Virus record (IMG/VR): IMGVR_UViG_2703719365_000009
Origin: a virus
Taxonomy: Duplodnaviria; Heunggongvirae; Uroviricota; Caudoviricetes
Direction: 5' to 3' (one strand)
Length of the DNA: 42,461 nt
The notes under the pieces are model-generated. The model saw only the letters and a list, made by a program, of their open reading frames with translations, was not told where the DNA came from and did no database searches. Positions 39,697 through 40,588 of the stretch are shown one piece after another. Position 1 is the first letter of the stretch. Each line of letters starts with the position of its first letter. The position numbers and the translations under genes are program-made.

Positions 39697-39897
39697 ATGT
39701 ATCGAAACATACGGTGCCGACACTGCAATAAGCTACTGGCACGGGCCAGTTTCAGTTATCTGGAAGTAAAATGTCCGCGCTGTAAAACCCTCAATCAAAT
39801 CACATCTCCGAGCGCCACAGAGCACCCCACATACACAAGGAAATCCTGTCGTGGGGAACAGAAAGCAAGTCACATCCCGAATCATCAGCACGCCTGA
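39697..39897 (+). CDS. com: Com-like zinc-finger translational activator of mom
   Basis: 66 aa; [10 protein letters not shown]...EVKCPRCK zinc finger resembling Mu Com; RBS AGGAGG; overlaps mom start. Confidence 0.85.
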
Positions 39898-40588
39898 ACT
39901 TATTCGCTATAACGACAATATCGTTGGTTATGGCTCCCGTGAGTTGCGGGTTGAGACAATAAGTTGCTGGCTGGCCAGACTGGTCATCGTCAATAAACAT
40001 TACAGCCACCGTTTCGTAAATAACTCCTACCTTCATCTGGGCATATTTTCAGAACGGGAACTTGTTGGCGTAATGCAATGGGGTTACGCCCTTAACCCAA
40101 ACAGTGGTGCACGCGTCGTAACGGGTACGCAGAACCGAGAATATATGGAGCTTAACCGGCTATGGCTGCATGACTGTATGCCGAGAAACTCCGAATCAAG
40201 GGCAATCAGTTACGCGCTCAAGCTAATCAGGCAGCTTTATCCGCAGGTACAGTGGGTTCAGTCGTTTGCAGATGAGCGTTGTGGCTGTCTTGGTGTCGTG
40301 TATCAGGCAAGCAATTTTGATTATGTAGGCAGCCATGAATCAATATTCTATGAACTTGATGGCGAGTGGTATCACGAGATTTGCAGGAATGCCATTAAAC
40401 GAGGCGGACCACGAGGTGAACATCTGAGGGCTAATATTGACAGAGCCAGTGTTCATAAGTTCCGACAGTTTCGTTACATCCGGTTTCTGAACAAGAGGGC
40501 CAGAAAACGCCTCAACACAAAGCTATTCAAAGTCCAGCCTTACCCAAAACCACAAACAGTTAAAACTGGTTTGAAAGAGAGTGAATGA
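39851..40588 (+). CDS. mom: Mom-like DNA modification enzyme (adenine acetamido modification, anti-restriction); start codon uncertain
   Basis: 245-aa ORF beginning inside com, last gene before right end as in Mu; family assigned by position and com coupling. Confidence 0.8.

Follow-up and report, generated by a model that had tools for sequence, protein, structure and literature searches.

What is the overlapping pair of genes at the right end of this DNA, would it work as the com-mom operon of phage Mu does, and where does its second gene start? The window (the whole stretch analysed, 42,461 nucleotides (nt) of the Caudoviricetes virus record IMGVR_UViG_2703719365_000009) had received a first-pass annotation from the sequence alone, which described an overlapping pair at its right end: a zinc-finger Com-like open reading frame (ORF) of 66 amino acids (aa) overlapping a 245-aa Mom-like ORF by about 47 nt. 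We find that the two genes very probably form a Mu-type com-mom operon that is functional and lies at the right end of a Mu-like prophage of the Sp18 type, where RNA binding, translational activation and chemistry are attributed by analogy with Mu. Nothing that we found contradicts this core identification; there are weaker points only.

The com gene (39697-39897, plus strand; 201 nt, ATG start) encodes a 66-aa protein with a CCCC zinc ribbon. The ORF scan reports an 81-aa ORF at 39652-39897, in which the internal ATG at 39697 gives the 66-aa Com. As read from the sequence, a Shine-Dalgarno AGGAGG lies at 39681-39686 on the plus strand, 10 nt before this ATG, and it aligns with GGAGG in Mu. 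Com matches the Pfam family Zn_ribbon_Com (PF10122) at 1.9e-12 (46.9 bits, for a cutoff of 22.9), and the PHROG 'gpCom control of modification' at 7.8e-13. The alignments to the Mu proteins that had been proposed as a check give 47% identity for Com (pairwise BLASTP) and 79% for Mom, and the zinc-ribbon cysteines C7, C10, C26 and C29 align with C6, C9, C26 and C29 of Mu Com. The overlap with mom runs from 39851 to 39897, exactly 47 nt, with mom in the +1 frame relative to com, and in all the com-bearing relatives, too, com is upstream of the mom start and overlaps it. The coordinates, lengths and overlap first proposed for the pair are thus exact. The Prokaryotic Genome Annotation Pipeline (PGAP) calls the same two ORFs in E. 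coli O103:H2 CEC12044, and since com and mom both have strong family matches, they are not a chance pair of ORFs. A sequence search found no solved structure of Com, and neither the PADLOC defence-system models nor NCBIfam gave anything useful for Com or Mom. The name given by PGAP to the equivalent of the window Com (WP_001310452.1), 'Com family DNA-binding transcriptional regulator', conflicts with the experimental literature, in which Com is an RNA-binding translational activator (PMC6483171).

The mom gene (39851-40588, plus strand; 738 nt, GTG start) encodes a 245-aa enzyme that is predicted to have a GNAT fold and to modify DNA by an adenine N6 carbamoylmethyl ('methylcarbamoyl') group. 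Its match to Pfam Mom (PF25680) spans profile positions 1-202 of 202 (1.8e-76, 256.7 bits, cutoff 27.1), and PHROG 1384, 'Mom-like DNA modification protein', is matched at 5.1e-83. The BLASTP alignment to Mu Mom covers 233 aa, from residue 1 to the Mu C-terminus, and the solved Mu Mom structure PDB 8bv8 ('Methylcarbamoylase mom') is matched with an E-value of 2.7e-123. Pfam, PHROGs, BLASTP and 8bv8 therefore agree with the earlier assignment to a Mom-like, adenine-modifying family, whose chemistry can now be specified: glycine from Gly-tRNA(Gly) is transferred to adenine N6, followed by a rearrangement to N6-carbamoylmethyl-adenine (PMC13219725). The residues reported as important for Mu Mom are H48, Y49, R101, S114, D139 and Y149 in the numbering of the 231-aa protein (PMC7261163), and W48, H58, Y59, R111, S124, D149, R151, Y159 and W181 in that of the 241-aa protein (PMC13219725). 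In the alignment of the window Mom to Mu, all nine (W40, H50, Y51, R103, S116, D141, R143, Y151 and W173 in the window) are invariant. The GNAT fold of Mom carries a helix-turn-helix-like insertion that is needed for Mu Mom activity; it corresponds to approximately residues 175-209 in Mu and 167-201 in the window, and there the two proteins align without gaps and are mostly identical. A Mom-like enzyme that makes a different adduct from that of Mu Mom, or that acts in a different sequence context, would be compatible with the 21% of residues that differ and with a 12-aa C-terminal extension relative to Mu Mom. The 79% identity, together with the conserved activity residues and the gap-free DNA-binding insertion, makes such a divergent chemistry very improbable.

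The start of mom had been held uncertain in the first-pass annotation, which spoke of a 'first ATG' and placed initiation possibly downstream of it. The ORF opens with GTG, and its first in-frame ATG is codon 75 (40073), past W40, H50 and Y51. The GTG at 39851 aligns with the GTG annotated as the mom start in Mu (AF083977, 35907; MGNRK.. and MGKEK..), it lies in the 3' arm of the predicted inhibitory hairpin discussed below, and it is preceded by a Shine-Dalgarno AAGGA that we read at 39837-39841 (plus strand), 9 nt before the GTG, where Mu has GGAG at the same place. Scanning for ATG, GTG and TTG from the preceding stop to codon 26, we find that it is the only start codon of the ORF upstream of the conserved core. 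Two alternatives were considered and rejected. A later start, at the ATG of codon 75 or the TTG of codon 32, would cut conserved N-terminal residues (W40, H50 and Y51 in the case of the ATG); in Mu Mom, deeper N-terminal truncation reduces activity (PMC13219725). An earlier start, as in the 241-aa form of Mu Mom, is not available in the window lineage, where the frame ahead of 39851 contains neither ATG nor GTG nor TTG. Mu does have an in-frame ATG ten codons upstream of the GTG, inside the Com hairpin, which would yield the 241-aa form of PMC13219725, and Mu Mom tolerates the loss of those ten residues well (PMC13219725). Judged from the sequence, mom starts at GUG 39851.

What precedes this GUG resembles the RNA switch of Mu. 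The mRNA of Mu has a 'translation inhibition structure' whose stem contains the GUG of mom, and the binding site of Com is a short hairpin immediately 5' of this structure. The features that Com recognises are a loop CC(N)2-3GAG with a closing C-G pair, and in vitro selection (SELEX) gave the consensus NGAGNNCC(N)2-3GAGNNCCNN (PMC6483171). The putative Com target in the window is at 39810-39826 on the plus strand (GAGCGCC-ACA-GAGCACC), with a stem of 39812-39815 paired to 39822-39825 and the hexaloop CACAGA. This segment is an exact fit to both the SELEX consensus and the loop motif, the single match in the 42-kb window with 0.11 expected, and it aligns with the 19-mer Com site of Mu. The window site fits the SELEX consensus better than the Mu site does (GAG versus GAA, and NN versus NNN), and carries a C.A mismatch. 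Directly 3' of it we find the stem-loop masking the mom start that had been suggested as something to look for: a predicted translation inhibition structure at 39825-39856 (plus strand), in which CCCCAC (39825-39830) pairs with GUGGGG (39851-39856) to form 6 basepairs (bp) around a 20-nt loop, with the GUG in the stem. This stem is predicted in every fold tried. Inside the loop, an inner mini-helix (39835-39840 with 39845-39849) pairs two G of the mom Shine-Dalgarno with the CC at 39845-39846. The predicted fold of 39808-39865 has an energy of -14.3 kcal/mol (z -1.85), and the equivalent Mu segment has -10.7 kcal/mol. Residue C39825 is a member of both hairpins, as is the corresponding U in Mu. 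The search for an Rfam family of the regulatory RNA returned nothing relevant, just two sub-threshold chance matches.

The layout of the operon in Mu (Mu_52/Mu_53, AF083977 35768-36602) is the same in gene order, with a com/mom overlap of 50 nt for 47 nt in the window, and both have the GUG start of mom inside a CCCAC/GUGGG hairpin with a hexaloop Com hairpin immediately 5'. The distance from the end of mom to the right end of the element is 115 nt in Mu and 128 nt in the window. The differences are that the loop of the inhibitory hairpin has 20 nt in the window, with an inner helix that pairs the Shine-Dalgarno, and 11 nt in Mu; that Mu has an upstream in-frame AUG, which gives the 241-aa form, and the window has none; and that the gin gene adjoins com in Mu, whereas in the window the invertase gene and com are separated by 3.2 kb of cargo together with a divergent 154-aa ORF.

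The Com hairpin has support beyond the comparison to Mu. We collected 92 mom loci from species-representative genomes and viral contigs, which provide 45 distinct upstream sequences. Amongst these, a Com hairpin is found at the homologous position, and its stem varies: AUGC/GCAU, GUGC/GCAU, GCAC/GUGC, GUGC/GCGC, GCGC/GCGU, GGGC/GCCC, AAGC/GCUU, AGGC/GCCU and GCGC/GUGC. In an alignment of the 16 distinct hexaloop versions, 95.3% of the cells are paired and three of the four pairs have changed on both sides, while the closing C-G pair is invariant. The covariation score was reached by none of 500 shuffles, and it collapses in slid registers. The unpaired cells are confined to the second pair, where the window lineage and two relatives (L041 and L042) have C.A; a close variant (L031) has a U at that position, a change that is synonymous in com and restores the pair. 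In the loci examined, the Com hairpin was detected only where com is present, and all seven distinct upstream sequences (eight loci) without a com zinc-ribbon ORF have no hairpin. Three com-bearing loci (L004, L006 and L043) were missed by the automated hairpin scan. Variant hairpins fold at the expected place in L004 and L043; for L006 the automated scan found no hairpin, and none was assigned by eye or by folding. As for the inhibitory stem, the window, Mu and every enterobacterial relative are predicted to form CCCAC/GUGGG around the GUG. In more distant relatives (Neptunomonas, Endobugula, Azospirillum and others) the helices are different, yet the start codon or the Shine-Dalgarno still lies within them.

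Mom is also found without this control. The com-less mom loci (L005, L074, L078, L084, L085, L013 and L093/L094) encode a homologous Mom with 70-78% identity; by comparison to the window they lack both the com ORF and the Com hairpin, and mom mostly starts with ATG; several of them share GATC clusters just upstream of mom. The window clearly belongs to the com-dependent type of mom locus, and not every Mom-encoding element uses Com to control translation.

Several weaker points qualify the reading of a switch that works as in Mu. At the second pair of the Com hairpin the window has the C.A mismatch, and the minimum-energy fold forms just 2 bp there. The z-scores of the folds are modest (-1.85). 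Both hairpins are inside the com coding sequence (..EHPT..), and coding accounts for part of their conservation. The CCCAC/GUGGG stem, being invariant among the enterobacterial relatives, has no covariation support of its own. An alternative explanation is translational coupling in cis, in which mom is opened mainly by the ribosomes that translate com, with little contribution from the binding of Com. In its favour, the com ORF contains both hairpins and extends 47 nt beyond the start of mom, which takes a translating ribosome through both structures, and the mismatch weakens the Com hairpin in the window lineage. Yet Mu Com has been described as an RNA-binding activator of this very hairpin (PMC6483171, PMC3378877), and the window retains the exact bipartite binding motif together with an intact CCCC zinc ribbon. 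Moreover, the hairpin covaries and was detected only in com-bearing loci, which fits a contact between protein and RNA better than the mere passage of ribosomes. We therefore consider coupling in cis very unlikely as the main mode of control, and a switch operated by Com remains our reading of the two hairpins.

The other weaker points concern the promoter. The 154-aa ORF directly upstream of com (39118-39582, minus strand) is divergent, so there can be no read-through from it and com-mom needs its own promoter in the intergenic region 39583-39696 (plus strand). A consensus scan of the plus strand upstream of com found no good match to a sigma-70 promoter. The region includes a perfect 9-bp inverted repeat, AATCGATCG-N7-CGATCGATT (39629-39653), with GATC at 39633 and 39646 around a run of T5. 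The arrangement TCGATCG-N8-GATCGATT is common to the window and Mu, and it is the counterpart of GATC sites 2 and 3 of Mu mom. There are two GATC sites upstream of com in the window and three in Mu, and clusters of GATC are a recurrent feature of the enterobacterial relatives, too, upstream of com or mom. The Mu promoter is weak and depends on the late activator C, and OxyR is kept away from the GATC sites when Dam has methylated them (PMC3378877, PMC4461284). From the last GATC to the com ATG there are 51 nt in the window and 77 nt in Mu, which places the window pair 26 nt nearer to com, and in the alignment the Mu segment between the last GATC and com has no counterpart in the window. In Mu this segment carries the C-binding site, a poor -35 element and a T6 spacer, and the promoter has a TAAGAT -10. 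The dependence of com-mom on C is therefore unsupported in the window. In the relatives L041-L043, good -10 hexamers TATACT or TATAGT occur 4-6 nt after a conserved GATCGAT, where the window has TGAGAAAGG.

A possible activator is encoded in the window. The prophage has one gene of the Mor/C family (12034-12459, single copy, between gemA and the lysozyme gene), for the separate Mor and C genes of Mu. Its product shares 39% identity with Mu C and 27% with Mor, and it is placed like Mu C, just before the lysozyme gene. With a C homologue present, a different C site is possible. A comparison by eye and by alignment of the com upstream region with the other late-gene upstream regions and with Mu Plys found no convincing common activator motif. 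The GATC inverted repeat was considered as a site for the C-like activator and set aside: it is not seen upstream of the lysis gene, which leaves that role unsupported. More speculatively, the Sp18-type lineage could have a rebuilt mom promoter, in which the two Dam sites of the inverted repeat would lie over the presumed -35 and spacer and the Mu segment between them and com would have been lost. Transcription would then respond directly to methylation (or to a protein recognising the repeat) and not to the late activator C, and the enlarged two-tier hairpin would tighten translational control. We put this forward tentatively and think it is probably not the case; if true, the rebuilt promoter would be a textbook circuit with altered wiring and not a new system. 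Downstream of mom, a strong hairpin with a U run at 40619-40665 (plus strand; 13-bp stem GAAAAGCGCCGAU/AUCGGCGUUUUUC), within the right-end sequences, is a plausible intrinsic terminator of the com-mom transcript; the predicted fold of 40580-40670 has -28.4 kcal/mol (z -3.89).

Put together, the mechanism that we propose for the window is as follows. A bicistronic com-mom mRNA would be made from a promoter in 39583-39696, and com would be translated freely from it. Translation of mom would be blocked, with GUG 39851 paired in the hairpin 39825-39856 and the Shine-Dalgarno partly paired in its loop. Com would bind the hairpin at 39810-39826 through the CC-ACA-GAG of its loop; because the Com hairpin and the inhibitory stem share C39825, binding of Com would open the stem and allow initiation at the GUG. 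With Gly-tRNA(Gly) as the donor, Mom would then add glycine to the N6 of adenines in double-stranded phage DNA, in the S-A-S context of Mu (S is G or C), and the adduct would rearrange to N6-carbamoylmethyl-adenine, which would block many restriction enzymes. Methylation of the two GATC sites by Dam would probably control transcription, and the C-like activator possibly contributes. This is the least certain step, as the promoter layout differs from that of Mu.

Is the element that carries the operon alive? Nearly the whole window is filled by a complete Mu-like prophage of 39.4 kb (1338-40716), with the gene set expected of one: repressor, Mu-type transposase (with Mu transposase domains), GemA, a C-like activator, and lysis, head and tail genes, as well as an invertase and a tail-fibre segment. 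It interrupts the J (tail-tip) gene of a lambdoid prophage: 42-1337 encode the N-terminal part of J and 40717-41369 its C-terminal part, with the lambdoid lom and stf downstream. The two copies of the target duplication TGTTT are at 1333-1337 (left) and 40717-40721 (right). An uninterrupted J target is found in VT1-Sakai, and the duplication is therefore read as 5 bp. The right-end region, 40589-40716, has 40716 as its last base (...GCGCTATA), immediately followed by TGTTT. The boundary ...GCGCTATA is common to 14 independent insertion sites, and the sequences diverge beyond it. From the mom stop at 40588 there are 128 nt to the prophage end, and com and mom are the last genes before it. The second insertion that we examined, in E. 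coli O103:H2 CEC12044, has the duplication CGATT. Two GenBank records of Shiga toxin (Stx) phages (LC727881 and LC727895) have a similar Mu-like insert annotated with a 4-bp duplication. The particular junction between J and the Mu-like prophage was found in none of the 5426 complete E. coli genomes searched.

The Mu-like prophage that carries the operon is common in pathogenic E. coli. A com-mom stretch at least 90% identical (mostly at least 95%) is present in 233 of the 5426, with many copies in O157, O111 and O103, at many insertion sites and in up to 5 places per genome. Such multiplicity of copies and sites argues for an active element. In CEC12044 the stretch is 99.8% identical, and the ORFs called by PGAP have 201 nt and 738 nt with the 47-nt overlap. 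The proteins are in public annotation as 'Com family...' (WP_001310452.1) and 'Mom family adenine methylcarbamoylation protein' (WP_000528251.1). Enterohaemorrhagic E. coli carry such Mu-like prophages, Sp18 in O157:H7 Sakai and Phi804-3 in FRIK804, which have been reported as intact elements of approximately 39 kb that transpose to strain-specific sites (PMC2669165, PMC7430833). The window prophage differs from these in insertion site alone, where Sp18 was compared by its description and not by alignment. If the module were instead the silent relic of a defective prophage, one could point to the location of the prophage inside the J gene of another prophage and to the lack of a clear sigma-70 promoter upstream of com. 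However, both ORFs are intact, and all the residues reported as important for Mu Mom are conserved. The whole Mu-like gene set is present, from repressor, transposase and GemA to C, lysis, head and tail. Near-identical copies at many sites with clean 5-bp duplications indicate recent transposition, and weak activator-dependent promoters are the rule for Mu mom (PMC3378877). A relic is, on this evidence, the least credible of the explanations considered, with hardly any probability left to it, and an intact operon in a mobile prophage is what we retain.

Other features of the prophage and its surroundings were also recorded. The termini of the Mu-like prophage are GTAACC... and ...CTATA, versus TG...CA in Mu. 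Near the left end (1361-1515) there are three copies of a motif TTTGATAC(C/T)G, and near the right end (40634-40705) three copies of the complement, (C)GGTATCAAA or GTATCAAA. These end-repeats are probably the transposase-binding repeats of the Mu-like element. The segment 36430-39079, between the invertase gene (35770-36330) and com, is cargo typical of Stx and lambdoid phages. It encodes a 679-aa protein with SASA and DUF6645 domains, 78-81% identical at the DNA level to the Stx-phage yjhS gene ('9-O-acetyl-N-acetylneuraminic acid deacetylase'), for which the PADLOC defence-system models and NCBIfam gave nothing useful, and this ORF is followed by DUF1378 and DUF826 genes. The divergent 154-aa ORF has two CPAC motifs at its C-terminus; its sole match is to PHROG 26524 (unknown function) at 2.5e-52, with none in Pfam, NCBIfam or PADLOC. 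The GC content of 39400-39799 is 38%, the lowest within the profiled region 33000-42199. The 1084 nt from 39650 to 40733, which include mom and the right end, contain no GATC, where about 3.4 would be expected (P approximately 0.03) from the window average of one per 315 nt; Mu mom, unlike this region, does contain GATC. Finally, lom (41437-42078), a gene for an Ail/Lom outer-membrane protein, has a perfect 42-bp tandem duplication at 41722-41815 (2.2 copies, 100% match) that encodes an in-frame 14-aa repeat, WFSVMAGPSVRVNE.

As a module, the com-mom pair of the window is ordinary and intact, and already annotated in public genomes. Its importance is mainly one of correct annotation: it serves as a marker for the right end of a Mu-like prophage that is intact and has recently been mobile. 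The absence of an upstream start in the window lineage supports the GUG, and not the AUG of the 241-aa form, as the ancestral start of mom. The covariation of the Com hairpin, which spans the Gammaproteobacteria and one Azospirillum locus, provides comparative support for a model of Com-RNA recognition that had previously rested on the biochemistry of Mu and Haemophilus. By analogy with Mu, the virion DNA of this prophage would be expected to carry N6-carbamoylmethyl-adenine and to be resistant to many restriction enzymes.

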